Shown: one piece after another, positions 2,492 through 64,000 of the stretch
Position numbering within the stretch: position 1 is the stretch's first letter
Layout of the letters: every line of letters begins with the position of its first letter
Origin: an uncultured Piscirickettsiaceae bacterium
GTDB taxonomy: Bacteria; Pseudomonadota; Gammaproteobacteria; GCF-002020875
Assembly: GCA_964344325.1 (NCBI GenBank)
Contig: CAYFMX010000001.1
Span: forward strand, 202,233 to 266,232
Reading direction: 5' to 3'
Length of the DNA: 64,000 nucleotides
Notes under the pieces: generated by a model
What the model was told of the DNA's origin: nothing
Database searches by the model: none
What the model saw: only the letters and a program-made list of their open reading frames with translations
Translations under genes and position numbers: made by a program

Positions 2492-4375
2492 CTACGATTT
2501 TTGCATTGACCGTTTTTTCAAATAAATCCGCAACAACGAAATCGCTGCCGGTGTCACGCCCGGAATCCGCCCTGCCTGCCCCAAGGTTGCCGGTTGTTGC
2601 GCCTGCAATTTCTCCCGCACTTCCGTTGACAAGCCATCGACCTGCCCATAATCAAGTTTTTCCGGTAGCCTACTCTCTTCATCGCGGCGGTTTTTCTCAA
2701 TTTCGACTTTCTGGCGCTCAATATATCCGGCGTATTTCGCCTGAATTTCCACCTGTTCTAACGCCAATTCGTGCGTCTCGGGAGAAGCCATTCCCGGCAA
2801 ACCCATCAATTCTGCATAAACCACTTGTGGACGCGAAAGCAAATCCATTAGCGAGTGTTCGCGTGAAATAGGCTCGCCCAACACCCGTTCCAACTCCGCA
2901 TCGGCAATTTTTCCCGGTTGAATCCATGTAGACCGCAATCGCTCTTGCTCACGCGCAATCGCTTCGCGCTTTTCGCTGAAGGCTTGCCAACGCCCATCAT
3001 CCACTAAATCCAATTCGCGCCCTTTTTCCGTCAAACGCAAATCAGCATTATCTTCACGCAACAAAAGCCGGTACTCGGCGCGGCTAGTGAACATCCGATA
3101 AGGCTCATTGGTTCCACGTGTAATCAGATCATCCACCATCACGCCAATATAGCTTTCATCCCGACGCGGATGCCATGGCTCTTTTTCCTGCACCTGCCGC
3201 GCTGCATTGCAACCAGCAACCAATCCTTGCGCCGCCGCCTCTTCATAACCCGTCGTACCGTTGATTTGCCCAGCAAAAAAGAGGCCAGAAATCGCTTTTG
3301 TCTCCAACGACGGGCGCAAATCACGCGGATCGAAAAAGTCATATTCAATCGCGTAACCGGGACGGGTGATGTGCGCGTTTTCAAATCCTTGGATTGAGCG
3401 CACAAACTGGAGCTGCACATCAAACGGCAGACTGGTAGAGATGCCATTGGGGTAAATTTCGTGGGTATCCAATCCTTCTGGCTCGACAAAGATTTGATGT
3501 GAATCACGCTCCGCAAAACGCACAATTTTGTCCTCCACTGATGGACAATAGCGCGGTCCTACACCCTCAATCACGCCGCTGTACATCGGTGAACGATCCA
3601 GCCCTTCCCGAATCACATCATGTGTTTTTTCATTCGTATAGGTGATCCAGCACGAGCACTGTTCAGGATGATCTTCGCGCTTACCCAAAAACGAGAAAAC
3701 TGGCAGTGGTTCATCGCCCTTCTGCTCAGAAAGTTGGCTGTAATCAATCGTCTTGCCGTCGATGCGCGGCGGCGTGCCGGTTTTTAACCGTTCGACGCGA
3801 AACGGTAATTCACGCAGCCGTTCTGCCAGCCGAATGGAAGGCGGATCACCTATCCGTCCGCCCGACATATTGGATAATCCGACATGAATCACGCCATTGA
3901 GAAATGTTCCTGCCGTCAACACCACAGCGCGTGCGGAAAAATGGATACCGGATTGCGTCACTACACCCGCAACCTGCCCGTTTTCCACAATCAGGTCATC
4001 CACCGCTTGCTGAAACAATGTGAGATTCGGCTGGTTTTCCAACTTGTGACGAATCGCTTGCCGATAAAGCTGCCGGTCAGCCTGTGCGCGGGTCGCCCGC
4101 ACAGCCGCCCCTTTACTACGGTTGAGGATGCGGAACTGGATGCCCGCACGATCTGCTGCCCATGCCATCACACCACCCAGCGCATCGACTTCTTTAACCA
4201 GATGCCCCTTGCCAATCCCGCCAATCGCCGGATTGCAACTCATCTGCCCCAAGGTTTCGAGATTGTGCGTCAGCAATAGCGTTTTTGCGCCGATTCGCGC
4301 AGCTGCGAGAGCAGCTTCTGTGCCCGCATGACCGCCGCCGACAATAATGACATCAAATGTTTCCAGATAATTCAT
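2492..4375 (-). CDS. mnmG: tRNA uridine-5-carboxymethylaminomethyl synthesis enzyme MnmG (GidA)
   Basis: 627 aa, N-terminal FAD-binding [14 protein letters not shown], conserved GidA length and synteny. Confidence 0.95.
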
Positions 4376-7981: not shown

Positions 7982-8055
7982 TCGGGCGTCGTCTAACGGC
8001 AGGACAACAGGTTTTGATCCTGTGAATCGTGGTTCGAATCCATGCGCCCGAGCCA
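7982..8055 (+). tRNA. tRNA-Gln (anticodon UUG)
   Basis: 74 nt; 7-bp acceptor stem TCGGGCG/CGCCCGA, anticodon stem ACAGG/CCTGT with loop TTTTGAT, T-loop TTCGAAT, 3' CCA encoded; lies between ispE and prs. Confidence 0.8.
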
Positions 8056-9935: not shown

Positions 9936-10511
9936 ATGAGCGGCAAAATTAAGCTAATTGTTGGACTGGGGAATCCCGGATCAAAATACGCAGAAACCCG
10001 GCACAATGCCGGGTTTTGGTTTGTTGAGGCTCTTGCTGAAAAGTATTCGGTTACTTTTCGGGAGGAGCCTAAATTTTTTGGGGAAGTGGCAAAAATCTCG
10101 TTGGAAGGTGAGTCGATTTGGTTGTTGAAGCCAACCACTTTTATGAACCGAAGCGGGCAAGCGGTTGCGGCGTTGGCCAATTATTACAAAATTCCGGTAC
10201 AGTCGATTCTGGCTGTGCATGATGAATTGGATCTACCATCGGGTCAGGTGCGCTTGAAATCAGGTGGCGGTCATGCGGGACACAACGGTTTACGCGACAT
10301 CACTGCACATTTGAGTGCAGATTTTCACCGCGTACGCGTTGGCATTGGACGACCTACTCAATCTGGCGCGGTGTCCGATTATGTGTTGGATTCGCCAAGC
10401 AAAGCGAAGCGGATTGAAATTGATGTGGCGCTGGATGCAGTTTTGAAGCATTTGCCGGAAATTGTGCGTGGTGAATTCCAGAAAGCGATGAATTCACTGC
10501 ACCAGAAATAG
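9936..10511 (+). CDS. pth: peptidyl-tRNA hydrolase Pth
   Basis: 191 aa, motif GLGNPG and the HNG catalytic region. Confidence 0.9.
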   Translation: MSGKIKLIVGLGNPGSKYAETRHNAGFWFVEALAEKYSVTFREEPKFFGEVAKISLEGESIWLLKPTTFMNRSGQAVAALANYYKIPVQSILAVHDELDLPSGQVRLKSGGGHAGHNGLRDITAHLSADFHRVRVGIGRPTQSGAVSDYVLDSPSKAKRIEIDVALDAVLKHLPEIVRGEFQKAMNSLHQK

Positions 10512-10513
10512 CA

Positions 10514-10588
10514 AAGACCACCCCGTCACTTCGTGTTACACCTCCAAGGGAGAGAAATGCCCTTTGAAGGGGGGCAAGCGCAGCCTGA
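10514..10588. repeat. about 75-bp structured intergenic repeat, copy A
   Basis: Shares the blocks aagaccaccccg, cctcca-agg-ag and tttgaagggg-gc-agcct with a second copy at 38920-38999; contains short hairpins. Confidence 0.45.
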
Positions 10589-10659
10589 CAGAGTAGTATT
10601 TTGGATTGAATAGCAGCGCTATGCAGGGAACGGACAAAAAATAGAAGAGGAACAAAGAG

Positions 10660-11823: not shown

Positions 11824-11900
<77 letters not shown>

Positions 11901-12067: not shown

Positions 12068-13426
12068 CTACTGCGTTATTCGGCTTCGTTTGCCTTTTTC
12101 TGGCATTTTCTGAATAACCTGCTCCTTCATTCTTTCTGCTGCCTCTTTGGTTGGATACGGGCCGACCCGCACTCGATATAATTTCTTGGCACCTGTTGTG
12201 CTTGTTTTCACAAACGCCTCAACCCCTGCTTGGCGTGCTTCTGTTAGCAATCTATATGCTTTTACTTTCTCTGCTTCAGAAAAAGTATGTAGTTGTACCA
12301 CCCAGTCAGAGTTATTTTTTGGATCGGCTTTTTCTGCTTTCTCCTCAATTTTTGTTTTTGCGAATTGAGTGGATTCTCTTACCTGTTGTTTTTTCTTCGC
12401 TAGTTTACGTAGTGTGCTTATTCCTTCTAATGCAGTTGTATTGTCTGGTTGTAATTTCAATACTTCACGGTAACGCGGCTGCGATCCGCTTATATTTTCT
12501 TTTGAAATCAATTCCTTTTCTTCTACTAAATTTTGTTCTAAATCTTGTTCAGCTTGCTGGGACTGCGTTGCATCTTTCATCATGGATTGTATATTTTTCA
12601 TCCATGCGCGTATCCCTTCATAGCGTTTTCGATCTACAATCGGTGCTCCAGAATCGTACAAACTATTTAGAATATCCGCTGCTTCCTGTAGATTACCTTG
12701 ATACAAATATGCTTCTGCACGCAACAACCACTTTTTCTGGATTCCAGGATCAGAGAAGTGACGGGGTGCTGCTTCTAAGACAGCACTTTTCGTATTCTGT
12801 GGTTCCGTAGCTGTAGAAGCAACGTTTAGAGGGATATCCTCAGCCTTTATTGTTGATACCACAACAGTGTTTCTATCTGTTGTCAATTTCGCTTTTTTTG
12901 CCGCGTTTTTTACTGGTTTTTTTGATACTGCATAATCAGTAGCAGCTTTTGATTTCTTCGATTTATTTTTCTGTGCTGACTGAGTTGATGATAGCGAATT
13001 CGTGAAATCACTTTTATCACCCATTAATGAGTGGGAGCTTACACGTTGTGTGGGAACGTAGCGATAGGTCGGTTGTGTTTTCTCTTTTGCCGCTTGTAGA
13101 GCCGCATTAATTGCGCCTTTCCCAATGCCGCTTACGACTACTTTCTTAGGTTGACCCTGATTCTTTATTTTTTGTGTTTCTTGGACAGTCTGTCTCTTGT
13201 TCTCTTTAAATTTTAGTCTGGAAGTAGGTGGTTCGTAGGATTGTCCCAACAATTCCGGTGCTACAGCGGCAACGACACCTTCAGCTTTTTCCTGCACCTC
13301 CAAAACATTTCGGTTGAATTCATTAAAATGTTTTTCTACCACCTGTTCTGGACCGCCCACACAACCACTAATAAATGTGATGGAAGCCAATGTAATACTG
13401 ACCGGAAGTTTCTGTTTACTCATCAA
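12068..13426 (-). CDS. SPOR-domain lipoprotein (peptidoglycan-binding, TPR-like middle region)
   Basis: 452 aa, lipobox ISGC, lysine-rich low-complexity linker, C-terminal SPOR-like segment (WVVQLHTFSEAEKVKAY...YRVRVGPY). Confidence 0.55.
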   Translation of the reverse strand: MMSKQKLPVSITLASITFISGCVGGPEQVVEKHFNEFNRNVLEVQEKAEGVVAAVAPELLGQSYEPPTSRLKFKENKRQTVQETQKIKNQGQPKKVVVSGIGKGAINAALQAAKEKTQPTYRYVPTQRVSSHSLMGDKSDFTNSLSSTQSAQKNKSKKSKAATDYAVSKKPVKNAAKKAKLTTDRNTVVVSTIKAEDIPLNVASTATEPQNTKSAVLEAAPRHFSDPGIQKKWLLRAEAYLYQGNLQEAADILNSLYDSGAPIVDRKRYEGIRAWMKNIQSMMKDATQSQQAEQDLEQNLVEEKELISKENISGSQPRYREVLKLQPDNTTALEGISTLRKLAKKKQQVRESTQFAKTKIEEKAEKADPKNNSDWVVQLHTFSEAEKVKAYRLLTEARQAGVEAFVKTSTTGAKKLYRVRVGPYPTKEAAERMKEQVIQKMPEKGKRSRITQ

Positions 13427-15302: not shown

Positions 15303-15868
15303 TCAAAATTGATACAAATAAACAGTTAAAACAATGAATTAAATAGAAATTGATTTGAAATCAACTTGAAATTAAGTTGAGATTTATTGACTCAAACAAA
15401 TCCAGATTTGTTTGGAATCATCAAAACCAATGGTTGAAGTAGAACTTTTGCTTCAGTACGCAATCGCTAATAAAGCAACATCCATACCGTTTTTTACAAA
15501 ACCGGAATTTTTGTTCGTCCAACTGCGTGTTTCAGCACTTTTCAAACAAGATTTAGACAAGATCATGAACACACAATTGCATCCATACGGATGCAACAGC
15601 GGAATCACGCACCAATATAATGCAATCAAAATCTTCAAGAACCAAATTTGTGCAGCGCAAGATTGCAGAAAAACAGTACATCAGATAACAACCGCACCAT
15701 AACTGCGCAAAAACTGAGAAAAATTGTGGTGTTGCAGCTATTTGTGCTTGCTCCCACCAATGTGCCGATTTTTGACATAACCGCGTCCTTTCTCCATCAT
15801 CAAGCAATTCAATAGATTCATTGAATCAATGAGCGACCTATATTTGTGCATTTGGGGGATTTCAGCAC

Positions 15869-17910: not shown

Positions 17911-18074
17911 TTAATAAATTCAAACTACCTAATTATGATTTGAAATATTTTTTCAAGCGATTGCCCTGTCAAAATTAGTTAAATTATAGCGATTCTCCGA
18001 TGAACAACCTATAATTATGCCGTTTGTTTTTTCAGTTTTTCTATACCTTCCAGACGAGATTTCACCTTTTGGCT

Positions 18075-19082
18075 ATGAAGATTCTAGTTGTCCGTGTAGG
18101 ACGCCTCGGCGATGTAGTGATGATCACACCAGCATTGGTAGCGATTTTTGAAGTATTTCCTAACGCAGAAGTAACTGTTTTAACCGGCCCAGACGGTGTT
18201 CCTGTATTACGTAATTTCCATCCAAATTTGAAGCAAATTTGGGTACATGACCGCAAGAAACTGTTCTCTTTTATAGACCGACACAAACAAGCTCGTAATA
18301 TTCGTCACGAGCAGTTTGACCGCATCTACAATTTCGAGATGCATCCTGACTACCGTAGAATGTTCGAAAAAAGCAGTGGACAAGTTTTTCAATTAGGTGC
18401 GCGTGCACCAGATTTACACTATTCACAGCACTGCCTCAATTTAGTGAATGCTTCCGTTGAAACAGTCATTCCACAAAAATGGGAATATCTGCCTGTCACC
18501 GAATCAGGGCGAAACAAAGCACAAACGATGCTTATGGAAGCTGGAATTTCAAGCGATGATTTTGTACTTGGCCTGCATCCCTCATTCAGTGGTCTGAACA
18601 AGGCAAAATGGCGAAACCGGCAAGACCGAATTTGGCGTCATTGGCCTCCAAAACATTTTGGAAAGCTAGCAGCTTTACTCGCCACATATGCCAAGCAGCA
18701 AAATATTCCCTTGAAAATAGTGATGTCTTTGCTTCCCCATGAACGCCCGTTGGGAGAAGAAATCCAGAATCTCTCTGGAAACCATATCAATATTTTCACG
18801 CCACCGCCCGATTTCGACTATTACAAAGCAATGATTCAACGCATGGACTTACTAGTTACCGCAAATACTGGACCGATGCATATCGCCTCTGCAATCAATA
18901 CGCCTATCATCGCACTATATGCTGGTGCTATACCAGAAGATGGTGGTCCATTTACGTCACCAGAACAATACACTGTACTGCATGCGGAGGATACAGAATA
19001 TCCAGAATTGGGAATTACGGCCATTACGCCGGAAGTAGTCTTAGAAGCAGTGATTCCTTATTTCAAAAAAACTAAAAAATAG
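18075..19082 (+). CDS. GT9 family LPS heptosyltransferase
   Basis: N-terminal KILVVRVGRLGDVVMITPAL motif typical of ADP-heptose:LPS heptosyltransferases; start moved to the internal ATG. Confidence 0.7.
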   Translation: MKILVVRVGRLGDVVMITPALVAIFEVFPNAEVTVLTGPDGVPVLRNFHPNLKQIWVHDRKKLFSFIDRHKQARNIRHEQFDRIYNFEMHPDYRRMFEKSSGQVFQLGARAPDLHYSQHCLNLVNASVETVIPQKWEYLPVTESGRNKAQTMLMEAGISSDDFVLGLHPSFSGLNKAKWRNRQDRIWRHWPPKHFGKLAALLATYAKQQNIPLKIVMSLLPHERPLGEEIQNLSGNHINIFTPPPDFDYYKAMIQRMDLLVTANTGPMHIASAINTPIIALYAGAIPEDGGPFTSPEQYTVLHAEDTEYPELGITAITPEVVLEAVIPYFKKTKK

Positions 19083-19146
19083 ATGTTTTTTAACAAATAT
19101 TCAAGCAGCAGAAAAAATCAACCGAATTAAAACCGGGTTTCTAACT

Positions 19147-19536
19147 ATGAAAATCTCAGCACCAATTTCCATTGGAGAATTAATGGATAAAATAACGATT
19201 CTTGAGATCAAACTAGAACAATTCCAGGAACGATCCAAACTGGAAAATGTAAACAAAGAGATGACTGCGCTCAAGGAAAAACTATTCAAGAAGAATGTGG
19301 ATATTGAACAAATTGAAGAAGAAGTACATAAACTCAAACAGATCAATATTCAATTGTGGGAAATTGAAGATGCAATTCGTCTAAAGGAATCAAAAAAAGA
19401 ATTTGATGAAGAATTTATTGAATTAGCACGCTCTGTCTATTTCACAAATGATGAACGTGCGGAAGTAAAAAAAGAAATCAACTTAAAACTTGATTCTGAG
19501 TTAGTAGAGGAAAAATCCTACGCAGACTACGCATAA
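19147..19536 (+). CDS. hypothetical coiled-coil protein
   Basis: 129 aa, highly charged (E/K-rich) with heptad character, no recognisable catalytic motif; wedged between two GT9 genes. Confidence 0.4.
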   Translation: MKISAPISIGELMDKITILEIKLEQFQERSKLENVNKEMTALKEKLFKKNVDIEQIEEEVHKLKQINIQLWEIEDAIRLKESKKEFDEEFIELARSVYFTNDERAEVKKEINLKLDSELVEEKSYADYA

Positions 19537-19548
19537 ACTCAAATCAAT

Positions 19549-20592
19549 ATGCGTGATTCATCAGAAAAACGGATACTGATTATCCGCAATGATAAACTGG
19601 GCGATTTCATGCTAGCGTGGCCTAGTTTTGCGATGATCAAAAAAAATTGCCCAAATTGGAAAACTTATGCGCTAGTTCCAGAATATACACGGGAAATTGC
19701 AGAAATCTGTCCCCATATTGATGAAGTGTTGATTGATCCTGCTAGCGGAAAAAACTGGAAAGATATTTTTTATCTTTCGAATTTAATCAAACATCATCAA
19801 ATTGACGTAATCATTACCCTGTTTTCAACTACAAAAATCGGCATTACCGGGCTGCTTTCTGGTGTAAAAACAAGAGTTGCACCTGCCACAAAAATCGCGC
19901 AGATTTTTTATCCACAAACACTCAAACAACGACGTTCACGTTCTGAAAAACCGGAATATGAATACAATCTAGAACTAATTCGCATATTTTTAAAAACAAG
20001 TCAAACTAACGAAATTTTAGAACCAGAAGCACCTTATCTCTCTTTTCCAGAACAAGAGCTGAAGCAAATCCGAGATTCTTTAATTCAGGAAATTATATCT
20101 AAGAAATCAATAAATTATGCAAATAAAGAGCAGCAAGACCAAGCAGATAATGAAAAAATAATTTTGATCCACCCAGGAAGTGGTGGTTCTGCAAAAAACC
20201 TCTCCTTACAGCAATATTTTTCCCTTGCAGAAAAAATTTCAGCGCGTACAAAAACAACAGTTATTTTCACTGGAGGTCCTGGAGAAAAAAATCTGCTTCA
20301 GGAAGCTGAAGAATATTTTCCTACTTTTCAATCAAAAAGTGGAATTGTGTATTTTGCAAAAGTGATTGCGTGTGCAGATTTATTTATCAGCGGATCAACG
20401 GGGACACTCCATATTGCTGGTGCACTTAACCAAAAAACAGTTGGATTTTATCCATTACGCCGCTCTGCAACAGCACTACGCTGGCAAACAATCAACCAAA
20501 AAGAAAACCGGCTTTCTTTCTCTTTGCCAGATCAAAAAGAAGATATAAATTTAGAAGAGATTTCTGAAAAAATTATTCGTTATTTTTTCTAA
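19549..20592 (+). CDS. GT9 family LPS heptosyltransferase
   Basis: 347 aa, ILIIRNDKLGDFMLAWP N-terminal motif. Confidence 0.7.
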   Translation: MRDSSEKRILIIRNDKLGDFMLAWPSFAMIKKNCPNWKTYALVPEYTREIAEICPHIDEVLIDPASGKNWKDIFYLSNLIKHHQIDVIITLFSTTKIGITGLLSGVKTRVAPATKIAQIFYPQTLKQRRSRSEKPEYEYNLELIRIFLKTSQTNEILEPEAPYLSFPEQELKQIRDSLIQEIISKKSINYANKEQQDQADNEKIILIHPGSGGSAKNLSLQQYFSLAEKISARTKTTVIFTGGPGEKNLLQEAEEYFPTFQSKSGIVYFAKVIACADLFISGSTGTLHIAGALNQKTVGFYPLRRSATALRWQTINQKENRLSFSLPDQKEDINLEEISEKIIRYFF

Positions 20593-21380
20593 GAATTTTC
20601 GTTCTTATCACGATCATTCCAACGCACCCATAGTGCCGCATATTTTGCAAAGACAGAATGCGCAGAAAGCAACGCTAATAATAAGCCTTGTTTTCCGTCC
20701 AAAAAACCTAATTTCAGAATATACATCCGAAAAAAATACCAACTCCCGTGTGAGATAGCTTGTAATAGTGATGCTTTTTTCCCTTTTTGGAACCGCTGTT
20801 CCGACCACTCTGCGGCATATTTTGCAGATTTTTCTAAATAGTGTTGTAAATCCCGATAAGTATAGTGGAGCAAATCCCCTTTTAATCGCTTGATCTGAAT
20901 ATTTTCTTTCAGGAAATAGAGCTTTTCGTGGACCCGTTCATCGCCATATTTCGCGGCATAGCAAGAATAAAACCGTATTTTAGGCGCAGGATACCACCCA
21001 CTGTGTCGGATAAAACAACCAAATACCCAAGGAAGAATATCAATTTTATATACGATATTTTGGTTGTTTTCTGAAACAATTTTTTCAATGGATTGACGAA
21101 GTTCAGGAGTGACGCGCTCATCTGCGTCAATCATTAAAATCCAATCATTTGAAGCGTAAGATTGCGCCCGTTGACGCTGTATTCCAAAACCTTTCCAGTC
21201 CGTATTTTGAAAAATTTTATCTGTGAATTCCGATGCAATCTCTAATGTACGATCTGTACTACCATTATCTAAAATAACAATTTCATCTACCCATTGCACA
21301 GATTCTAATGAAGATCGTATAGAACCTTCCTCATTTTTTACAATCAAAACAACAGATAATTTACTTTGACTGTATTTCAC
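20589..21380 (-). CDS. GT2 family glycosyltransferase (LPS core, WaaE/KdtX-like)
   Basis: 263 aa, LSVVLIVKNEE...ILDNGSTD motif and DAD (DxD). Confidence 0.7.
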   Translation of the reverse strand: MKYSQSKLSVVLIVKNEEGSIRSSLESVQWVDEIVILDNGSTDRTLEIASEFTDKIFQNTDWKGFGIQRQRAQSYASNDWILMIDADERVTPELRQSIEKIVSENNQNIVYKIDILPWVFGCFIRHSGWYPAPKIRFYSCYAAKYGDERVHEKLYFLKENIQIKRLKGDLLHYTYRDLQHYLEKSAKYAAEWSEQRFQKGKKASLLQAISHGSWYFFRMYILKLGFLDGKQGLLLALLSAHSVFAKYAALWVRWNDRDKNENS

Positions 21381-22605
21381 GTTTTCTCGACATCATCGTT
21401 GCAATTGGAATCAATAAAAAAAGTAGAAAAACTCCCGGTGGCGATGAACGTGATAACCAATTTTGACTTAAACCAAATACTGCAAAAGAGACCAATGCCA
21501 TCATACCTATCATAATCCAAACATGATCTTGCTCTTCTGTATCCTGATTTATTTTTCTCCAAAGATAGAAAAAAGGAATTCCAAAAACACCTATCATGAT
21601 ACTTAGAAAACCTAATATGCCGGTTGTTGCTAAGAATTCTATGTATAAGTTATGCGCTTCTCCATAATTAGATATTTGTGCGTAACGTATATTATATTCT
21701 GCTAGTATTTTTTTATCTATATAATAGTCACCTAAGCCAGTACCAATCCACGGATTATCTTTCCAAATCTCAATTGCTGCTTCGGACATTAAAAGTCTTT
21801 GACCTACAGAACCTTCAATTTTTCCTTCCAGATAATTGGAAGATTCAACTTGTGCCTGATCCCAACGGTTTTTTACAGAATCCGGAAAAGCAAATATCAT
21901 TATTGTCAATGTTGTAAAAAATGTGAATAACAATATTATTGTATTTTTTCTCCACATTTTAAATTTCAATATACCCCAAATCATCAATAAAACTGCTGGG
22001 GGTAATGCAATCCATGCGCCACGCGTTCCTGAATAAAATGCCGCTGCAATTGCAAACAGTGAGGAAATTAAAGCCAATCCTCGGAACCAAAAAGTTTGTT
22101 GAGAAAAAAGAGCAACTGCTAGAGCCGAAAGCCCTATCACCATTGCGTAATCTCCATATAAAATAGAATTATACGATCCAACAGCAGTCTTTCCTGTACT
22201 CCATAAAAGATAAAATAAAATAGGCCCTGCTAGTAATATACCAATAGAAAAAAATCGACCTATTTGACCGCCAACTTTCCGTAGCATCAAATATGCTGGA
22301 ATCACAAACAAGAAACGCGCAACCCTTTCAAAACGTTTCATACTATTATGCATATCATCTACATTAATATAGCTGATGATTGATGCAATACATATCCCTA
22401 AAAAACCTAATAACAGCCATTTTTCCCATGAATCTAAATATTTCCATTCTGACCATGAAAAAAACAGGCCAAACAATGCAATTAATAAAACTGCTCCACT
22501 ACCTATACCTTTTACTATTGTCATCGCGACTGGAAAAATAACCACCAAACTAAACAGTATTATTTTTAAAAACTGCATACTATTTTTTTCGAACAGATAA
22601 TTCAC
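21361..22605 (-). CDS. O-antigen ligase family membrane protein (WaaL-like)
   Basis: 414 aa, about 10-12 TM helices, periplasmic loop with conserved Arg/His (GTRGAWIA...H), within the core-LPS cluster. Confidence 0.65.
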   Translation of the reverse strand: MNYLFEKNSMQFLKIILFSLVVIFPVAMTIVKGIGSGAVLLIALFGLFFSWSEWKYLDSWEKWLLLGFLGICIASIISYINVDDMHNSMKRFERVARFLFVIPAYLMLRKVGGQIGRFFSIGILLAGPILFYLLWSTGKTAVGSYNSILYGDYAMVIGLSALAVALFSQQTFWFRGLALISSLFAIAAAFYSGTRGAWIALPPAVLLMIWGILKFKMWRKNTIILLFTFFTTLTIMIFAFPDSVKNRWDQAQVESSNYLEGKIEGSVGQRLLMSEAAIEIWKDNPWIGTGLGDYYIDKKILAEYNIRYAQISNYGEAHNLYIEFLATTGILGFLSIMIGVFGIPFFYLWRKINQDTEEQDHVWIMIGMMALVSFAVFGLSQNWLSRSSPPGVFLLFLLIPIATMMSRKREIQSK

Positions 22606-23690
22606 TCTAAAATCTCTAAATACTCTTGAACTTCTCTTTCTTTCCTAAATAATTTTCTTGCTAGACCAATGTTTTCTATAGACTTTTCTTTTTCATACTT
22701 TATTTTAGAACAGACATCATAAAGAGTCTTATGTAACTCTATTTCATTTCTATTTTCCACAGCATGCCCATAAAAACCAAGGGAAAATATTTCTGGAATT
22801 GTAGTATTATCATAAGCAATGCAAACTAATCCACATCCTAATGATTCTGCTAAAACATTACCAAAGCCTTCACCGGAAGTTGGATATAAAAATACATCAT
22901 AATCTTGTAATTTACTAATAATATTCTCCACATGACCTAAAAATTTTATTCTATCTTTATAGTTAGTTAAAAGAGAAGTGTTTTTTAATTCTCGAAGATA
23001 TTCTTCTTCATCAAAATTTCCAATCAAATATAAATTGAATGGAATATTGTTTTCATAAAGTATCTGACATGCTTGAATAGCATCATCCTGTCCTTTACCT
23101 CTTGCAATTCTACCAACATGAACAACTTTAATTATCTTGTTAGTCTTTTCATGAGAAATTTCTGTTTTTTCTGAATATTGAAAAGAAGGATAAATTAATT
23201 TTATTTTCGAACTAGAGGAAATAGGAAATATATTGCGCACATTCCTTTTTAAATGATTGCTAATCACCACATGCCAATTAACACAGCTATACATCCATGT
23301 ATGAAACCAATCTTTCTTGCTATGCGACATAGTTGTGCCATGTCGAATGATGACATTCACACCTTTACCAATCAATCCAAAATAAATAGATTTTATTTCT
23401 GAAGTTCCAAAAAATATTATATTTTTTATATTTTCTGTAAAAACAAGGTCTCTTATAAAAAAAATCAATCTAAAACTAAAGTGTGACCGAAAATCACACG
23501 ACTTTACGCTAATTAAAGAAGAAATTTTTTTATCTTTTAGAATACGTTCTCTTATGTAGCTTTTATTTTTACATCCGACATATAACTTTCCGTATGGACT
23601 TAATTTTTCTGCCAAACGAACTGAATCAATCTCCATTCCTCCTTTTCCCATAGAAAAACAAAGGATTGCGGTATTGCCTATCTTATCCAT
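22602..23690 (-). CDS. GT4 family glycosyltransferase
   Basis: 362 aa, C-terminal EGFGNVLAESLGCGLVCIA motif of GT-B GT4 enzymes. Confidence 0.75.
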   Translation of the reverse strand: MDKIGNTAILCFSMGKGGMEIDSVRLAEKLSPYGKLYVGCKNKSYIRERILKDKKISSLISVKSCDFRSHFSFRLIFFIRDLVFTENIKNIIFFGTSEIKSIYFGLIGKGVNVIIRHGTTMSHSKKDWFHTWMYSCVNWHVVISNHLKRNVRNIFPISSSSKIKLIYPSFQYSEKTEISHEKTNKIIKVVHVGRIARGKGQDDAIQACQILYENNIPFNLYLIGNFDEEEYLRELKNTSLLTNYKDRIKFLGHVENIISKLQDYDVFLYPTSGEGFGNVLAESLGCGLVCIAYDNTTIPEIFSLGFYGHAVENRNEIELHKTLYDVCSKIKYEKEKSIENIGLARKLFRKEREVQEYLEILE

Positions 23691-23697
23691 TTTCTAT

Positions 23698-24720
23698 TCA
23701 TATAACATGAGAAGGAGAAATATTATTTAAACATTTCAAATGCTTAAAATAGCATTTTCGATCAAAACAAGGACTACATTCCAAACCCAAATAATATACC
23801 TTTTTTCTCCCCGTTAACGGCGGTGTATATTCTGGCGTAGAAGAACCATAAATCGCAATCACCTCCGTCCCCACTGCCGCTGCAACATGCATCAATCCGG
23901 AATCATTGGTAATCACTTTTTCGCACGCAGAAAGCAAATCAACCGCATCTTCAATGCGCGTCTTTCCACACAAATTAATCAGTGTTCGTTGTGAAATCTC
24001 AAAAATTTTTTCTCCAGCTTGGAAATCTTTTTTTGATCCTAAAATGATGACCTGATTCCCTTGATCAAACAATTTCTGACCCACTTCTGCAAAATACTCT
24101 AATGGCCACTGTTTTGCTGGACCATATTCTGCCCCCGGCAATAGTGCAATAATCTTCTTTTCTGAATAATCAAGATGATACTCTTTCTTTAAATTTTCTC
24201 TATTTTGCAAATCAATTTGTAGTTTTAGGAAAGGTACATTTACCTCTTTTTCAATTTCTTCTATGGTTTCTTTATCTGGAGCCAACGCCACATAGCGTTG
24301 CACGGTCTGTTTTAGACGGATTTTGTCCAATTCACGAATATCATTCAATAATCCATAACGCATTTCACCGCGATACCCCGTGCGTTGTGGAATCTTGGCA
24401 AAAAATGGAACCAATGCCGACTTCCAAGAACGCGGAATCACAATCGAACGATCATATTTTTCTGCACGTAATTTTTTTCCTAACTGCCGACACGCTTGTA
24501 ATCCTAATTTTCCATGTGGAACATCCAACGCAATCGCATTGGTCACTTCAGGCATCCGCTGAACAACGGGTAATGACCACGTCGGCGCAACGACATCAAT
24601 TTGCAGGTCTTCTAGAGTTCTATTTTTCTCTTTTTCTTGCTGTTGCAAAGTGATGCAGAGGCTTTGCATCATCACCATATCTCCAATCCAAGAAGGCCCA
24701 ACAATCAGGATTTTTTTCAT
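23698..24720 (-). CDS. waaF: ADP-heptose:LPS heptosyltransferase II WaaF
   Basis: 340 aa, long collinear similarity to E. coli RfaF (KILIVGPSWIGDMVM, GEMRYGLLND, LLPGAEYGPAK, VITNDSGLMHVAAA). Confidence 0.85.
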   Translation of the reverse strand: MKKILIVGPSWIGDMVMMQSLCITLQQQEKEKNRTLEDLQIDVVAPTWSLPVVQRMPEVTNAIALDVPHGKLGLQACRQLGKKLRAEKYDRSIVIPRSWKSALVPFFAKIPQRTGYRGEMRYGLLNDIRELDKIRLKQTVQRYVALAPDKETIEEIEKEVNVPFLKLQIDLQNRENLKKEYHLDYSEKKIIALLPGAEYGPAKQWPLEYFAEVGQKLFDQGNQVIILGSKKDFQAGEKIFEISQRTLINLCGKTRIEDAVDLLSACEKVITNDSGLMHVAAAVGTEVIAIYGSSTPEYTPPLTGRKKVYYLGLECSPCFDRKCYFKHLKCLNNISPSHVI

Positions 24721-24827
24721 GGTGAATCAGTAGGAACTCAAAAAATCATTTCAGAAAAAACGAAAGAGAAAAAACCAAAGAAAATTGATATAGAAGTTAC
24801 ACGAAAATATAGAGACAGAATGTAAAA

Positions 24828-25793
24828 TCAAGCGTTTAAAATGTCCAGATAATTCTGAACCCCTGCATTCACATCCAGAAATTCTTTCGCATAGCCCACG
24901 TTACGTAACGCAGACATATCTGCTTCTGTGAAACTCTGGTATGCGCCCTTCAAATGATCTGGAAACGGAATGTATTCAATTCTTCCATTCTGTCCCTGCG
25001 CTTGATGCCATGCAACCACTGCATTTGCCATGTCGTTGAAGGATTGTGATTTTCCGGTTCCCAAATTGAAAATCCCGGATTTTTCCGGATGACCCAAAAA
25101 CCAAAGGTTCACATCAACCGCGTCCCCAACGTAGACAAAATCGCGCCGCTGCTCGCCATCTCCATATCCATCACAACCTGCAAACAATTTCGCAACCCCA
25201 TTGTCCAAAATCTGGTTGTTAAAGTGAAACGCTGTGCTCGACATCGTTCCTTTATGCTGCTCCCGCGGCCCATAAACATTGAAATAGCGGAAACCAACTA
25301 CCTGGCTGTTCTGCGCTGCAATTTCCGGCTGCAGTCGACGTACATACTGATCAAACTGAAATTTGGAATAGGCGTACATATTGATCGGCTTTTCGTGCTG
25401 CCGATCTTCCTTGAATACCGCGCCGCTACCATATACCGACGCAGAAGAAGCATACAAATACTGCGCCTTGTTCCTCAGACACCAATGGAGCAACGATTTG
25501 GAATATTCGTAGTTGTTTTCCATGATGAACAACCCATCCCACTCTGTTGTCGCGGAACACGCGCCCTCATGGAAAATCGCCTGTACATTCCCGCCAAATT
25601 TTTCACCCATTTCAACCCGTTCGATGAAATCGTGACGATCCATATAGTCAGCAATATCCAGATCGGAAAGATTGACCATCTTCCGACCATTTTTCAGGTT
25701 ATCGACCACCAAAATGTCGCGCTCGCCGCGCTCGTTCAACGCTTTGACAATATTGCTACCGATAAATCCGGCTCCGCCTGTCACAATAATCAT
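24828..25793 (-). CDS. hldD: ADP-L-glycero-D-manno-heptose-6-epimerase HldD
   Basis: [14 protein letters not shown] Rossmann start, SDR-type epimerase; start taken at the internal Met rather than the MSRCCCK extension. Confidence 0.85.
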
Positions 25794-38110: not shown

Positions 38111-38874
38111 CAGCACCCTCTCATTCACCAGGTCAGGCGGGTCAACCGAGCCAACTCTCCGCACATCATCTCCAGAAAAGCTTTGGCAAAAAGCAGGTGG
38201 TGCATGATGTCTCTATCCATGTCCGTAGCGGAGAGGCAGTGGGACTGTTGGGGCCAAATGGTGCTGGGAAAACCACCTCTTTCTACATGATGGTCGGCTT
38301 AGTCGCCGCTGATGATGGCAAAATTGAACTAGATGGCAAAGATTTGACTGACGTTCCGATGTATCAGCGTGCACAGCGCGGGCTAGGCTATTTGCCGCAG
38401 GAACCCTCCATTTTCCGAAAATTGACTGTAGAAGAAAATCTGTTGGCCATTCTGGAGTCGCGCCCTGAACTGGAACGCCATCAGCAACTCAGCGAAGCAC
38501 AAAATTTGATGGATGAATTTCATCTTTCTGATTTACGCGATTCGCTGGGAATGAGCCTCTCGGGCGGGGAACGTCGCCGCGTTGAGATTGCGCGTGCGCT
38601 GGCTGCCAATCCGCGTTTTATCTTGCTGGATGAGCCATTTGCGGGCGTTGACCCAATCTCCGTTTCCGATATCCAGTTGGTGATCCGCTACCTTTCTACC
38701 CACCGTAATATTGGCATTATTGTCACCGACCATAACGTGCGCGAGACGCTCAAGGTGTGCCAACGCGCTTACATCATCAGCGAGGGAACGGTGATTGCCG
38801 AAGGCGCACCGGATCAAATTCTGGAAAACCCCAAAGTGCGCGAGGCGTATTTGGGGCATGAATTTGAGATGTAA
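38107..38874 (+). CDS. lptB: LPS export ABC transporter ATPase LptB
   Basis: 255 aa, Walker [10 protein letters not shown], signature LSGGERRR, Walker B LLDEP. Confidence 0.9.
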
Positions 38875-38919
38875 TCAATTAAGGACCGTCATTGCGAAAA
38901 TTTTGGAAATTGTAGAAGA

Positions 38920-38999
38920 AAGACCACCCCGCCGCTACGCGTCACCCCTCCATAGGAGGGGAATTCTCCTTCTTTGAAGGGGTGGCAGGCAAAGCCTAA
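38920..38999. repeat. about 75-bp structured intergenic repeat, copy B
   Basis: Same sequence blocks as copy A; contains perfect hairpins CCCCTCC-ATA-GGAGGGG and CCTTC-TTT-GAAGG. Confidence 0.45.
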
Positions 39000-39073
39000 T
39001 GGGGTAGTTCTTTTCAAAATAACCCCGAACTTAATCATCACGTACTCAATATTAAATCAACCAAAACCAATTT

Positions 39074-45693: not shown

Positions 45694-46773
45694 CTAAGGT
45701 ACTGCATTATGGCTGCATGGACGACATCGAGGACCTAACTCAACTCCCTGATATTTATATACTATCTCTTTTGCTTTAGTAACAACATCTCTCAACATTC
45801 CTTCATCGGGCGGACATCGACTACGAAGAGGAGTTGCTGGATCAGGACGAAATGGACTAAGAACTGGATCACAACCCCTTTCAGCCAAAGCTCTAATACC
45901 TTCCAGAGTCGATTCAATGCTTTCTAGTCCGACAAGTAGAGATGAACGAACACGCCCTACACCAAAAACTTCCACTGCCTGCTCAATAAATTCAAGATAG
46001 CACTCCCTAGATAATCCATACTTACGAGGAGTTATCTTTCTGGCTATTTGCTCATCAAAAACTTCAATATTTATTGATAAACCATAAATTCCTATGCGTT
46101 TAAGAAAATTTAAGTCAAGTAAGTCAGGATAAGGAACCATCATCACATCAATTTCAAGGTCAGGATAATAATTGCAGGTTGTCTCATAAACTTGTTGTAG
46201 ATACGAATAGTCTTCAACTTTAGGTGTTCCACCTGAGATCAACACATGACGTGGTGACAATTGTGGATCTTCTATCGCGACTCGGAGCGCATCCATCATT
46301 CGATCAATTGGATTTAGACGATATTTAGATGTGTAAGGTAAATCACAAAACGTACAGGTAATTGCGCATCCGTCCACCGGAGAGATACGCGCCCTATCTG
46401 CGTGTGTGTTTACATACTGAGTAAATGGCTCGCCCCATTGATTCAGTTTCCCATGATACGCAGGAACAGGAATTGGTGAAGCCATAATATTAGTATTAGG
46501 CCCAACCACGAAAAAACTACCACTGTTTGTCACAAGTTGATAAATTGGTTTTGTAACAAAGTTGTAATTATAATCGATGAAAGGTGTATTGACCCACACT
46601 TCTTGATTACGCATTGGATCAAATAGCTTTAGTGTAATTCCGTTTGTAGTAGCATAGTCTCCAGTAGTTAATTGATCAGTTCCCCAAATTTTGAAAAGCT
46701 CTGTGCGTGCATCTTGAGTAATCTCAATCCCTTTCGAATACAACGATAGTTTTAGAAATTCAATATTATTCAT
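45694..46773 (-). CDS. radical SAM enzyme
   Basis: 359 aa, CxxxCxxC cluster (CAITCTFC) after an N-terminal domain of about 130 aa, glycine-rich SAM-binding segment (ISGGTP); start overlaps the stop of the upstream NTPase gene. Confidence 0.75.
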   Translation of the reverse strand: MNNIEFLKLSLYSKGIEITQDARTELFKIWGTDQLTTGDYATTNGITLKLFDPMRNQEVWVNTPFIDYNYNFVTKPIYQLVTNSGSFFVVGPNTNIMASPIPVPAYHGKLNQWGEPFTQYVNTHADRARISPVDGCAITCTFCDLPYTSKYRLNPIDRMMDALRVAIEDPQLSPRHVLISGGTPKVEDYSYLQQVYETTCNYYPDLEIDVMMVPYPDLLDLNFLKRIGIYGLSINIEVFDEQIARKITPRKYGLSRECYLEFIEQAVEVFGVGRVRSSLLVGLESIESTLEGIRALAERGCDPVLSPFRPDPATPLRSRCPPDEGMLRDVVTKAKEIVYKYQGVELGPRCRPCSHNAVP

Positions 46774-48917
46774 TATTGTTCAGATTTAGTTTGCGAACCA
46801 CACGATATAATTTGATGCGCACTTGCATTAAGTAGTTTGGCACTACTTTGATCCCACATGCAATATTCAAACTTCGTTTCTTTGTTTGCAGAAATCACGC
46901 AACCATCAATGCTAACCAGTTGCTCCAAGCGAGCAAGCTGCACAGTAATATTATTAGACTTACCAAATGCAATAGCTGCTTTATCACTCTTATCGTGCTT
47001 CTGCTTAACCAACTCAGTAGGTCGTCCAACTTCTGAATCATAGTAAAAACTAACCTGGCATAATGTGGTTTCACCATCAAATGTTACATTTTCAAATCGA
47101 CAGCCCCTGAAATCAACTTGAGACTTTTCTTTAGCAATATCTATAAAGTCTGAGTCTTTGAATACACAGCACCAAAAAAGAACCCCTTGAAGATCGACAT
47201 TTCTAAATGTGCAATTGTCAAAGCTGATCCCTTTAAATATTGTTCCTTTGAAAGTCCATCCTGAAAAATCTATACCTGAAAACTCTGATAAATTCTGAAG
47301 TGATTTGAGATCTACATTTCCAATATCCGTAATGAAGGAACAACCCTGATAGAATTTAGCAGGTTGGAAATATGAGCTACTTAAATCTACTGACCCGCTC
47401 TGAAGCATAACATCTACTCCTACATTTTCTACAGGAGATGAGATACTATCTTCGAGCGTACCAAATATCTTTGACGCCCAATTACTTAATGCTGAACCTA
47501 AAAGATCATGAACTAGTTCAACACGCTTTCCTAAGCTATCTTCGCTATTATCATTATATGTCTTAAGAATATTCGCATTCTTAAGCACAGAAATGGTGTC
47601 ATTAAAATAAGATTCGATAGCCGATTGAGCATCTTCGTATATACCATATTTATTCATTAACTTCCGAGTATTGATCTCTTCATTTTCTATTAGCTTGTCG
47701 AGTAACTCCTTAGTGCGTATGGAAATCTTATAGTCACCAGCTGAAAGAAACGACGATATGCGTGCTGCTATCCAGCGAATATAGCCAACTCTACAAGACA
47801 TTTCAGTGTGATCACTATCACTGTTAAAGTCATTCAGCGACATTGTGATCCAACGTTCAAGTGCTTCAGAATAGACGAAAAGATAATCCTCTTCTTCCTG
47901 AGAATCTATGATGACTGATTGTTCATACCCCAATAGGTCTTCAATTAATACTCTTTTTTTCCCCTGTTTTTTAAGATACGAGAAAAACTCATAAGAAACA
48001 ACTTGTAAGGTGAGTAAGTTATTACTTCTGAAATCTAGTTTTTCTTCTATTCCTTTTTTCACCATAGAACAGTTCAGAATCAAACGATCTCTTGTATCTC
48101 TATCTAAGAATATATCTTCGCTCTCAAATGATTTTTCAATAATTAAGCCAACCTGCTTTGTGACACCATTCTGATCCGTAGAAGGTATAGCCTTGAGGAA
48201 ATATGCTCTGCGCATGATACTTCCTACCTCATGATCAAGGAAACGAAGTGCATGTAAATACTCTTCACGCAGAGAGATAAGAATACGAACTTGTTTGTTT
48301 AAATAATATAAATCCTTGATTAATTCTATTATTTCATTGCTTTCTTGCAACCTAGACCTAAATAGCTCCTCTAATTGGTCAAAAATTAATATTACTCCAC
48401 CATATTGCCTAACCAGTGACATAACGCTGGCGACAAACAGTTCGTTCTGGGCTCTGCTCCTAGCTTCATCTATCAATTGAGCTTTCTCCAGTATTCCACT
48501 TGCGATTTGGTAATCATTATGGTTCTTGAAGTCGGCTTCTTCCGGTGTTTTTTCAGGGTTAAGTCGTTCTATTGCTTCTGCCAAACTCATCCAGAGGTAT
48601 GTACGTAAATCAGCACTATTTGCGACTCCACCCCAGTCTCGAAATACAAGCACAGGGAAGGGATAGATAATTTTTTCAGAAGAATTTTCCAGAGATGCAT
48701 TTCGACGTTTTCCGAGTTCAGGTATTAAGCCAGCTCTCAGAAGCGATGTTTTACCAGCAGCACTTTCACCTGCTAAAACGTTAAGCTGCCAAAGCACCAT
48801 ATTCTGTATAAGTTCACCAATTTCTTTCTCACGGCCAAAAAAACGGGAATGGTGTCTCTCCTCATATGGAGTAGCACCCACAAATGGATTTGTACTTAGA
48901 TCGTTAATTGTATTCAT
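46773..48917 (-). CDS. STAND-type NTPase with C-terminal pentapeptide repeats
   Basis: 714 aa; FFGREKE-x-Walker A (GESAAGKTSLLRAGL), Walker B ILIFDQLEELF, large helical middle region, C-terminal pentapeptide-repeat beta-helix (DFSGWTFKGTIFKGISFDNCTFRNVDLQGVLF...). Confidence 0.7.
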   Translation of the reverse strand: MNTINDLSTNPFVGATPYEERHHSRFFGREKEIGELIQNMVLWQLNVLAGESAAGKTSLLRAGLIPELGKRRNASLENSSEKIIYPFPVLVFRDWGGVANSADLRTYLWMSLAEAIERLNPEKTPEEADFKNHNDYQIASGILEKAQLIDEARSRAQNELFVASVMSLVRQYGGVILIFDQLEELFRSRLQESNEIIELIKDLYYLNKQVRILISLREEYLHALRFLDHEVGSIMRRAYFLKAIPSTDQNGVTKQVGLIIEKSFESEDIFLDRDTRDRLILNCSMVKKGIEEKLDFRSNNLLTLQVVSYEFFSYLKKQGKKRVLIEDLLGYEQSVIIDSQEEEDYLFVYSEALERWITMSLNDFNSDSDHTEMSCRVGYIRWIAARISSFLSAGDYKISIRTKELLDKLIENEEINTRKLMNKYGIYEDAQSAIESYFNDTISVLKNANILKTYNDNSEDSLGKRVELVHDLLGSALSNWASKIFGTLEDSISSPVENVGVDVMLQSGSVDLSSSYFQPAKFYQGCSFITDIGNVDLKSLQNLSEFSGIDFSGWTFKGTIFKGISFDNCTFRNVDLQGVLFWCCVFKDSDFIDIAKEKSQVDFRGCRFENVTFDGETTLCQVSFYYDSEVGRPTELVKQKHDKSDKAAIAFGKSNNITVQLARLEQLVSIDGCVISANKETKFEYCMWDQSSAKLLNASAHQIISCGSQTKSEQ

Positions 48918-48962
48918 TTTATTAAAACCTGTGCAAACTAGAACAGTACTATATACACGATG

Positions 48963-50897: not shown

Positions 50898-50913
50898 TGA
50901 ATTGGTATTTTAT

Positions 50914-52290: not shown

Positions 52291-52385
52291 AGTAGTATTT
52301 ACCCCTTTAATATCTAAAATCTGTTAGTCTTTGATAAAGCTATTTCACGCACGATTCTTAAAAAAACCCAAGGAATCTAATGTAA

Positions 52386-63496: not shown

Positions 63497-64000
63497 TACA
63501 GCAACATCCCGTATCCCATGACGAAAATCATCGGTGTCAGTGAGGCAAATGCAATCAGACCGAAGCCGTCCGTCATCGGATTGCGTCCTTTGATCGACGT
63601 CGCCAATCCAACACCCAATGCAGTTACCAGTGGCACGGTCACCGTTGAGGTGGTGACGCCACCTGCATCGTAGGCAATCCCAATAATTTCGGTGGGCGCA
63701 AACAAGGTCATTGCCACCACGCCGAGGTAGCCGCCGATAATCAGATAGTGGATCGGCCAGCCTTTCAGAATGCGTAACACACCAATCAAAATTGCAAACC
63801 CGACCGCCAGAGCAACGGTGTAACGCAGGCCGCTGGCGTAAGATTCTTTTGCTTCTTCAGATTGCTCCAGTAAACCACCTGCAGCAGCGATTTCTGCCGC
63901 TTCTTTGGCAACTGCAATCAACGCCGGTTCTGCAACAGTGGTACTAAATCCAAGCAAAAATGCGAAGGTGAGTAACCAGAATAGACTTCCTTTTTTGGCG
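63496..64000 (-). CDS. DUF1538 family integral membrane protein (paralog; 5' end beyond the window)
   Basis: Reading frame continues to the window edge; paralogous to the preceding gene ([22 protein letters not shown]). Confidence 0.55.

Follow-up and report, generated by a model that had tools for sequence, protein, structure and literature searches.

Two short palindromic repeats in operon spacers

We analysed a 64,000-nucleotide stretch of DNA (hereafter the window) from an uncultured Piscirickettsiaceae bacterium, a gammaproteobacterium that occurs in the PRJEB17505 metagenomes, positions 202,233 to 266,232 of contig CAYFMX010000001.1, and found that it holds two copies of a short palindromic repeat, copy A between pth and ychF and copy B between lptB and rpoN. 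An earlier note, made from the letters alone, had described two repeats with shared ordered blocks, just downstream of a stop codon in these gaps. The blocks were recovered in order, namely AAGACCACCCCG at 10514-10525 and 38920-38931, CCTCCA at 10540 and 38946, TTTGAAGGGG at 10563 and 38973, and AGCCT at 10582 and 38993, and the gene names were confirmed, all four flanking genes being NCBIfam equivalogs. The location given for the copies was right, but the coordinates were slightly short, leaving out the 3' outer stem. Copy A starts 2 nt past the pth stop codon (TAG, 10509-10511) and ends 58 nt short of the ychF ATG (10660), and copy B starts 44 nt past the lptB stop codon (38872-38874) and ends 60 nt short of the rpoN ATG (39074). 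Both lie on the coding strand of their flanking genes.

Each copy consists of two facing arms, a left and a right one, and each arm has two hairpins, named hp1 and hp2. The arms were scored with a covariance model (CM), whose training set included the window arms, and with an independent hidden Markov model (HMM) built solely from the arms of other genomes. The elements are as follows.

10513-10601, + strand: copy A, 89 nt; convergent doublet, both arms present but degenerate, without spacer between the arms
10513-10561, + strand: left arm of copy A; AAAGACCACCCCG, hp1 CAC-TTC-GTG, degenerate hp2 CTCC-AAG-GGAG; CM 46.4 bits; independent HMM E = 2.8e-7 (10513-10558)
10553-10601, - strand: right arm of copy A, the most decayed arm; CM 31.0 bits (the model included this arm); no match by the independent HMM
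38919-39013, + strand: copy B, 95 nt; convergent doublet, less decayed than copy A
38919-38967, + strand: left arm of copy B; AAAGACCACCCCG, hp1 CGC-TAC-GCG, hp2 CACCCCTCC-ATA-GGAGGGGAA; CM 68.4 bits; independent HMM E = 3.5e-14 (38918-38965)
38960-39013, - strand: right arm of copy B; + strand reads TTCTCCTTCTTTGAAGGGGTG, GCAGGC-AAA-GCCT, AATGGGGTAGTTCTTT; CM 43.4 bits; independent HMM E = 5.6e-5 (39005-38962)

A repeat search paired 10513-10565 with 38919-38971 (75% identity), and aligning the two copies with MAFFT gave 79% column identity across about 120 nt. Each copy also matched its own reverse complement (nhmmer), with outer ends AAAGACCACCCC... and ...GGGGTAGTTCTTT; each element is therefore a palindrome. 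The left and right arms are inverted repeats that bound a short non-coding element in the manner of the termini of a miniature inverted-repeat transposable element (MITE), and the CM matched on both strands. The outer stem is T-rich at the 3' end of the copies (TATTTT and TTCTTTT). On the + strand, the right arm of copy A reads GGCAAGCGCAGCCTGACAGAGTAGTATTT, versus the family form GGCAGGCGCAGCCTGACGGGGTGGTT of the right arm at locus L129, and the differences are mostly G-to-A.

The four window arms scored 31-68 bits with the CM, versus 66-74 bits for the best family members, and the rest of the window scored no more than 10 bits. Because the CM had been trained on the window arms, the detection of three of the four by the independent HMM is what matters here. 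The likeness of copies A and B is far beyond chance. No third copy was found in the 64-kb window by nhmmer, blastn-short or the CM with filters off; a 14-nt match at 12755-12768 and a 10-bit match at 31748 were considered as further copies and rejected as chance-level.

Both copies are insertions into normally short spacers

In the window the pth-ychF spacer is 148 bp long, as it is in a 99%-identical strain with an identical copy A, versus 14 and 27 bp in the closest syntenic relatives. Similarly, the lptB-rpoN spacer measures 199 bp in the window versus 101 and 38 bp in the nearest relatives. The gene orders prs-rplY-pth-ychF and lptC-lptA-lptB-rpoN are kept in the relatives, with spacers about 100-160 bp shorter, and no arm was detected in 39 kb of their DNA (CM, filters off). 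This presence/absence contrast is one of deep divergence only, the nearest relatives in the protein collection being distant (Pth 66-67% and LptB 70% identity; range 65-70%). These results show that both window copies are insertions into operon-internal spacers that are normally short.

At the junctions of copy A, the heptamer AATAGCA occurs at 10508-10514 and 10608-10614, offset by 6-7 nt from the palindrome end, and no flanking direct repeat was seen in the sequence around copy B. The relatives are too diverged to provide exact empty sites or junctions, and hence insertion boundaries or target-site duplications, at either copy.

The arms belong to a structurally constrained family found across phyla

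A scan of one genome per species with the pattern AAGACCACCCCGN{13,17}CCTCCA returned at least 118 loci, about half of the pattern matches being chance matches in GC-rich coding sequence. Among the 126 pattern matches listed, 54 were distinct true arms sharing a module of about 50 nt. The consensus of 42 arm sequences is AAAGACCACCCCG, followed by the short hairpin hp1 and by hp2, CACCCCTCC-NNN-GGAGGGGAA(C/T)T. The CM added 109 and 75 matches, some of them arms that the search pattern had not selected.

The two hairpins are conserved in different ways. hp1 is a hairpin of 4-6 bp whose sequence varies while its pairing is kept: in the 42-arm alignment, pair 16:30 is GC, CG or UA, and pair 18:28 is CG, GC, AU or UA. 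hp2 is conserved in sequence. As its 5' strand was fixed by the search pattern, the arms found only by the CM served as a check, and these show the same hairpin or a CTCCTCC/GGAGGAG variant. Overall, 91.7% of the cells were paired, against 47-58% in slid controls, and the observed covariation was reached by none of 500 shuffles. The arms are thus under structural constraint.

At the level of the doublet, copy B folds with a minimum free energy of -48.2 kcal/mol (z = -4.7 versus shuffles, with a significant z-score on both strands) into an outer stem, hp1, a long central stem and a second hp1 (hp1'). Seventeen doublets of other genomes adopt this four-way fold as well. The + strand of copy A reached only -25.4 kcal/mol (z = -0.17), no better than shuffles, so that the expectation that both copies fold into hairpins held for copy B but not for this strand of copy A. 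Since its fold is indistinguishable from shuffles and its right arm carries the G-to-A changes described above, copy A looks eroded.

Neighbouring arms are arranged in several ways. Among the loci listed we counted 16 convergent pairs (gaps of 20-71 nt), 16 divergent pairs (gaps of 14-41 nt), 5 same-orientation pairs and 34 solo arms, with clusters of arms at some loci (L057, L024 and L033). About three quarters of the arms lie outside long open reading frames (ORFs), and some lie inside; both orientations occur, and 33 of 99 arms are within 150 nt of an ORF 3' end. Copy number can be high, as in the gut alphaproteobacterial metagenome-assembled genome (MAG) CAKQSE01, with at least 11 exact-pattern matches in 654 kb of contigs.

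The repeat had been proposed to be specific to this lineage. This is not the case, because the same arms occur across phyla. Among the matches listed, the arm-bearing Pseudomonadota comprise Alphaproteobacteria from gut, rumen and termite, Candidatus Enterousia, Rickettsiales, Gammaproteobacteria and Pseudomonadales; the Bacteroidota comprise Sphingobacteriales, Prevotellaceae, Bacteroidales, Flavobacterium and Daejeonella; and the other taxa are Fibrobacter (Fibrobacterota), Candidatus Ancillula (Actinomycetota), Candidatus Nomurabacteria (Patescibacteria) and Desulfuromonadales MAGs. In total, the family is present in at least seven phyla, by the labels of the MAG and genome records. The hp1 variants differ from lineage to lineage, as would fit transfer followed by local amplification.

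The consensus doublet had no match in plasmid and phage collections (blastn, where the low-complexity filter may have interfered), and IMG/VR gave only two matches, one a type I restriction-modification (R-M) remnant beside prophage genes and the other a solo arm beside an integrase. Full-text literature searches on the motif, on DUF559 (PF04480) and Vsr-like nucleases, and on palindromic elements within R-M genes found no paper describing the arm family.

We also observed that at several gut alphaproteobacterial loci (L014, L066, L109 and L046/L047) the arms form part of larger mosaic repeats that also contain another hairpin module, CTTGTCATTCCTGCGCAGGCAGGAATAGGG, unrelated to the arms, like the bacterial interspersed mosaic elements (BIMEs) of E. 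coli.

The arms are physically tied to one DUF559 subfamily

We clustered, blind to annotation, 754 ORFs lying within 1.5 kb of arms at 53 loci. One family alone, DUF559 along with R-M genes, recurred at more than three of these loci. DUF559 is a very common endonuclease-fold protein whose structure has been solved and which has no known function.

The tie is most direct at L053, where a 132-aa ORF begins 3 nt after the right arm (...GGGGTGGTCCC-ATG) and ends inside the left arm with the tail ...KDHPALTGTPPKEGN*. Its product is a DUF559 (PF04480) protein, a member of the Vsr-fold, PD-(D/E)XK endonuclease family, and the locus as a whole is arranged doublet-gene-doublet-gene. A metagenome scan with the window-type right arm TTTGAAGGGGNGGCANGCNNAGCCT returned six loci, three of which (L137, L138 and L140) directly adjoin a DUF559 gene; the right-arm variant of copy B, TTCCCCTTCTTTGAAGGGGTGGCAGGCGAAGCCTGACGGGGTAGTT, directly adjoins the gene at these same three. 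The final ~16 codons of the DUF559 gene overlap an arm at L053, L123, L129-135, L137 and L140, and at most of these loci a second arm, in either orientation, ends 0-3 nt 5' of the DUF559 start. These arrangements show that the arms are physically tied to one DUF559 subfamily.

The best 120 homologs of the L053 protein, in a protein ranking that favours tail-bearing proteins, are 64-80% identical to it and all carry the arm-encoded tail ..HPALTGTPPEEGN, sometimes tandem-repeated. They come from across phyla, with sources including Chlorobaculum, Thiomicrospira, Caldilineaceae, Fimbriimonadaceae, Competibacteraceae and Candidatus Endonucleobacter. A compensatory change in hp2 (CCCCTCT/AGAGGGG) marks the tail arm of L137, whose reading frame also differs, and the alignment with the sole solved DUF559 homolog, 3HRL, covers residues 31-115 and stops before the tail. 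What is conserved is therefore the nucleic-acid element and not the peptide. The DUF559 protein had no match in plasmid and phage collections (tblastn), and PADLOC gave no meaningful defence-system assignment for it.

The DUF559 gene and its arms (the DUF559 cassette) lie mostly in type I, type ISP or methyltransferase loci, that is, in R-M or defence loci, and sometimes in frame. The settings are as follows.

L129-135: hsdM-hsdS-DUF559-hsdR
L053: downstream of an hsdS-like 3' end, as read from the sequence and not from a scan
L123: a fragment of the HsdR N-terminus lies downstream
L033: within a degraded Type ISP R-M gene, as an arms-DUF559-arms cassette
L061: a Type ISP homolog, in which a solo arm lies in frame at the position of the L033 cassette (...TFTNEK-TTPPFGHPSNGGEF-APIDLLDYIYAVLHSP...)
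L137, 1245-5262: cassette and both arms in frame in a 946-aa stop-to-stop ORF running into an N6_N4 DNA methylase domain; a DarT-macro (DarTG-like) gene lies downstream
L138: adjoins a Fic gene
L009: downstream of uvrB

In L134, a Chlorobaculum MAG (DOMF01000018.1), complete doublets at 1657-1835 and 3441-3563 are embedded in the called hsdS and hsdR genes, whose ORFs stay open; they are palindromic inserts, in frame, within subunits of a type I R-M system, the hsdS product being 474 aa long versus 439 aa in L129. The arms stand on both sides of the DUF559 gene in direct orientation in L129-132, and L129 also has a stretch consisting of a right arm, 21 nt of the ORF 3' end and a left arm, as if derived from the cassette by internal deletion. 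The near-identical loci L129-L132 (e.g. L129 2900-3150) differ downstream of DUF559 in the number of tandem units of about 42 nt that contain hp2, TTGATTGAAGCCGCTGGCG..CCCCTCCAGAGGAGGGGAA, showing that arm fragments are locally unstable in copy number. In a published survey, 'DUF559 domain-containing protein' is one of the annotations enriched at loci of predicted inversion in an R-M context (PMC9881135); inverted arms would fit this enrichment, a point that is absent from the survey's discussion. The 64-kb window itself has no R-M gene.

A DUF559 cassette as candidate partner of the repeats

Taking into account the insertion into both spacers, the palindromic doublets and the large dispersed repeat family, the window elements are very probably inserted members of a dispersed palindromic repeat family, in line with the REP- or MITE-like nature suggested for them in the earlier note (REP, repetitive extragenic palindrome). 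Our preferred reading goes further and is somewhat more likely to be right than wrong: the two copies would be non-autonomous, decaying repeats of an undescribed, DUF559-linked family, resembling MITEs and REPINs (REP doublets forming hairpins), inserted in operon spacers and with the DUF559 cassette as putative autonomous partner. The step that DUF559 itself mobilises the repeats is more tentative, and we hold it possible without favouring it.

As a single strand or an extruded cruciform, a doublet is predicted to form a four-way junction of outer stem, hp1, long central stem and hp1'. If this mechanism applied, the DUF559 nuclease, encoded by the autonomous partner of the gene-less arms, might nick or cut at the arms or at the junction structures, and host repair or recombination might then copy the arms to new sites, or the arms might remain after loss of the gene. 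The window copies would be old relics, eroding by GC-to-AT change. At most, they would now act through a stable hairpin in the transcripts of pth-ychF and lptB-rpoN (copy B), by attenuating read-through or stabilising the upstream mRNA. The idea that DUF559 acts on the arms has precedent, because Vsr-fold nucleases are established as endonucleases of mobile (homing) elements (PMC3239194; bioRxiv 10.1101/2022.08.31.505936).

Several points weigh against this reading. The DUF559 gene is absent from the 64-kb window, where the best tblastn hit (E = 0.8) is the arm itself, so the window copies are gene-less, and DUF559 is carried by only 3 of the roughly 53 genome loci with arms. The tail count of 120 in 120 overstates how universal the tail is, for the ranking reason given above, and the more distant DUF559 gene of L009 (59% identity) has a full doublet upstream and no 3' arm. 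The arm upstream of the gene occurs in either orientation (L129 versus L053 and L134). The usual order around DUF559 is right arm-gene-left arm, from which simple loss of the gene would leave a divergent pair, not the convergent doublet of the window. No convincing target-site duplication is evident at copy A or B. To our knowledge, no transposition or cleavage activity has been reported for DUF559, and a single, successful gene spread by horizontal transfer could simply have picked up the arms.

We considered whether the arms might not be mobile themselves. They could be footprints of DUF559 cassettes lost through arm-arm recombination, comparable to solo long terminal repeats, or portable homology or attachment sites for homing of the cassette. 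The direct-orientation arms around the gene in L129-132 and the deletion-like stretch in L129 agree with such an origin, as do the solo in-frame arm of L061 at the position of the L033 cassette and the doublet-gene-doublet-gene order of L053. However, a past cassette would be required at dozens of sites per genome, given the count in CAKQSE01; the cassette is nearly always found in R-M or defence loci, whereas the window doublets are in housekeeping operons; and a convergent doublet is not expected from deleting a gene between a right and a left arm. We therefore regard this origin as unlikely.

Tests for an RNA function

The two copies might instead be functional cis-acting RNA modules, kept by selection after pth and lptB as a terminator, an attenuator or an mRNA-stabilising 3' hairpin. 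Their position just 3' of a stop codon on the strand of the genes, their T-rich outer stem ends and the high stability of copy B would suit such a role, as would the frequent location of arms elsewhere near gene 3' ends and terminators (the 33 of 99 arms mentioned above). REPs are also known for side effects of the terminator or mRNA-stabilising type (PMC3733652).

An intrinsic terminator has a GC-rich stem-loop directly 5' of a U-tract, and neither copy has this arrangement. A terminator consensus scan found no site in copy A and one in copy B, an internal site made of hp2 only and with a poor tail, where 0.4 sites are expected in shuffles. No promoter was predicted at the copies. Rfam gave no relevant match in the window at gathering score, nor did looser thresholds, E up to 10 for the surroundings of copy A and E up to 1 for eight arm-rich loci; the only matches at gathering score in the window are two tRNAs, and miRNA-like matches in L033 and L057 were rejected as merely arm hairpins. 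The folding energies of the two strands of the doublets showed no consistent bias (13 versus 6).

A dedicated RNA function of the copies in this window is unlikely, because the orthologous spacers lack the elements in every relative examined, the + strand of copy A is not stably folded, no promoter was predicted, the terminator-like site is at shuffle level, there is no strand bias, and family members occur in both orientations, in clusters and inside ORFs. The suggestion of a small RNA or terminator module thus found no backing here, and selected cis-acting modules are distinctly improbable. The hairpin of copy B may still have a passive effect on lptB-rpoN read-through or mRNA stability.

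Comparison with known systems

A classical REP is an imperfect palindrome of 20-40 nt with a GTAG (or CGTC) head next to the stem. The arms share with REPs and REPINs the short imperfect palindromes, the solo forms and inverted doublets folding into a long hairpin, and the mostly extragenic location, often at gene 3' ends. As in REPIN systems, the 16 convergent pairs among the loci listed and both window copies give long hairpins or four-way junctions, and a small, single-copy, nuclease-type gene is flanked by repeats while many gene-less copies are present per genome. These parallels to REPINs and their RAYT (REP-associated tyrosine transposase) partners (PMC3116915, PMC3337134) raise the question of whether the repeats are classical REPs or REPINs mobilised by a RAYT, an IS200/IS605-type Y1 transposase, encoded elsewhere, the DUF559 link being incidental.

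We consider this very unlikely. Neither GTAG nor CGTC stands as a head beside the hairpin on either strand, the box there being GACCACCCCG, and an arm is about 50 nt long with two hairpins, against the 20-40 nt of a REP. The associated gene encodes a Vsr-fold PD-(D/E)XK DUF559 protein and not a Y1 transposase, and one arm lies within its coding sequence; no recurrent transposase appeared in the blind clustering of ORFs at 53 loci, in which no explicit Y1_Tnp HMM scan was made. Further, REPIN-RAYT systems are described (PMC3116915, PMC3337134) as mostly vertical within lineages, whereas the arms are nearly identical across phyla and also occur in frame inside genes.

MITEs such as the Rickettsia palindromic elements (RPEs) and Correia/NEMIS elements are likewise non-autonomous palindromic inserts of about 90-150 bp with terminal inverted repeats in intergenic DNA. 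As expected of MITEs, both orthologous spacers lack the element in the nearest relatives, at deep divergence. The DUF559 cassette shares the arms, DUF559 not being a known transposase. In-frame palindromic insertion in ORFs has been described for RPEs (PMC10969869), and family members in L061, L134 and L137, not the window copies, are likewise inserted in ORFs without stop codons, a likeness by description. No target-site duplication was evident at the copies by comparison with the diverged relatives. Unlike MITEs, the elements have no DDE transposase partner; their arms are separable modules (solo, convergent or divergent), and the family crosses phyla with a strong association with R-M and defence genes.

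The Vsr-fold homing endonucleases, i.e. the I-Bth0305I family and the VSR-type enzymes that replace MobA/MobE in T4-like phages, are small nucleases of the same fold clan, carried in selfish cassettes within or between conserved genes; they too are horizontally transferred, with short sequences keeping the interrupted host gene readable (PMC3239194; bioRxiv 10.1101/2022.08.31.505936). In contrast, the DUF559 proteins here are without a NUMOD or helix-turn-helix extension, an intron or an intein, and the cassette is flanked by hairpin arms that have many gene-less copies; homing of the cassette is hypothetical.

With integron attC sites the repeats share several traits: an imperfect palindrome of 60-140 bp placed 3' in a promoterless ORF, folding as a single strand, and variable sequence over a structure that is conserved in part of the site. 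The site-ORF-site-ORF order of L053 also recalls them. The arms differ in having no GTTRRRY/RYYYAAC core sites, IntI integrase or array, in sharing long sequence boxes across phyla, and in occurring as dispersed solo copies in housekeeping operons; the GTTRRRY core is absent from the 3' end of both window copies, whose neighbours are pth/ychF and lptB/rpoN. We rejected attC sites, DNA uptake sequences, tRNA-derived sequence and CRISPR repeats, as their core motifs are absent and the context is wrong.

Finally, a small trans-acting RNA or other independent RNA gene would suit a structured, GC-rich, intergenic element with significant folding of copy B on both strands, and is extremely improbable for a palindrome without strand bias in which no promoter-like site and no Rfam match at E up to 10 were found, which is not stably folded in copy A, and which has family members inside coding sequences.

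Other features of the window and of an arm-bearing locus

Two islands of low GC content lie apart from the repeats. The first, at 18000-25000 (GC 0.33-0.39 versus about 0.48 around it), encodes two family-9 heptosyltransferases, an O-antigen ligase (Wzy_C) and a GT4 glycosyltransferase, and is probably a horizontally acquired lipopolysaccharide (LPS) core/O-antigen cluster. Near it, AT-rich short direct repeats, GAAATCAACTTGAAATTAAGTTGAGATTTA, lie in intergenic DNA at 15346-15386 and 19474-19503, with overlapping copies 11 nt apart and a third copy 4.1 kb away. The second island, at 46000-52300 (GC 0.37-0.39), encodes a 713-aa nSTAND1 NTPase with pentapeptide repeats, a 643-aa SIR2-like-domain protein and a 457-aa ORF without Pfam match, and looks like an anti-phage defence island. 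The largest repeat family of the window is a 178-nt direct repeat at 62755-62932 and 63510-63687, with 70% identity and a spacing of 755 nt, which may represent tandem paralogous genes or domains. The two tRNAs are tRNA-Gln(TTG) at 7982-8055 and tRNA-Met(CAT) at 11824-11900, the latter directly 3' of ychF. Outside the window, the Candidatus Nomurabacteria MAG locus L074 has a DUF805b RNA motif (RF02914) at 1465-1502 (52 bits, E = 4.8e-12), which is unrelated to the arms.

Implications

The window copies themselves are ordinary, being in all likelihood old, eroding inserts, and the interest lies in the family and in its tie to DUF559 and R-M genes. The family is a hairpin module of about 50 nt, almost unchanged across at least seven phyla and without an Rfam model. 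As the arms are free of stop codons in some frames, they may extend or fuse ORF predictions in the annotation of MAGs.

If the nuclease acts on the arms, these would provide a testable substrate for DUF559 and account for the pseudo-peptides 'HPALTGTPPEEGN' and 'GGVAGVA' that recur in gene calls, and REPIN/RAYT would be joined by a second repeat system made of a nuclease and hairpins. More speculatively, and we think this doubtful, the arms and DUF559 could together be a new selfish system: a minimal Vsr-fold nuclease cassette with hairpin arms as recognition or recombination substrate, which would colonise R-M and defence genes, often in frame, move between phyla, and seed gene-less arms and junction-forming doublets like those of the window. 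Were that true, a nuclease of another kind would underlie a partnership resembling that of REPIN and RAYT, and DUF559 would for the first time have a function.

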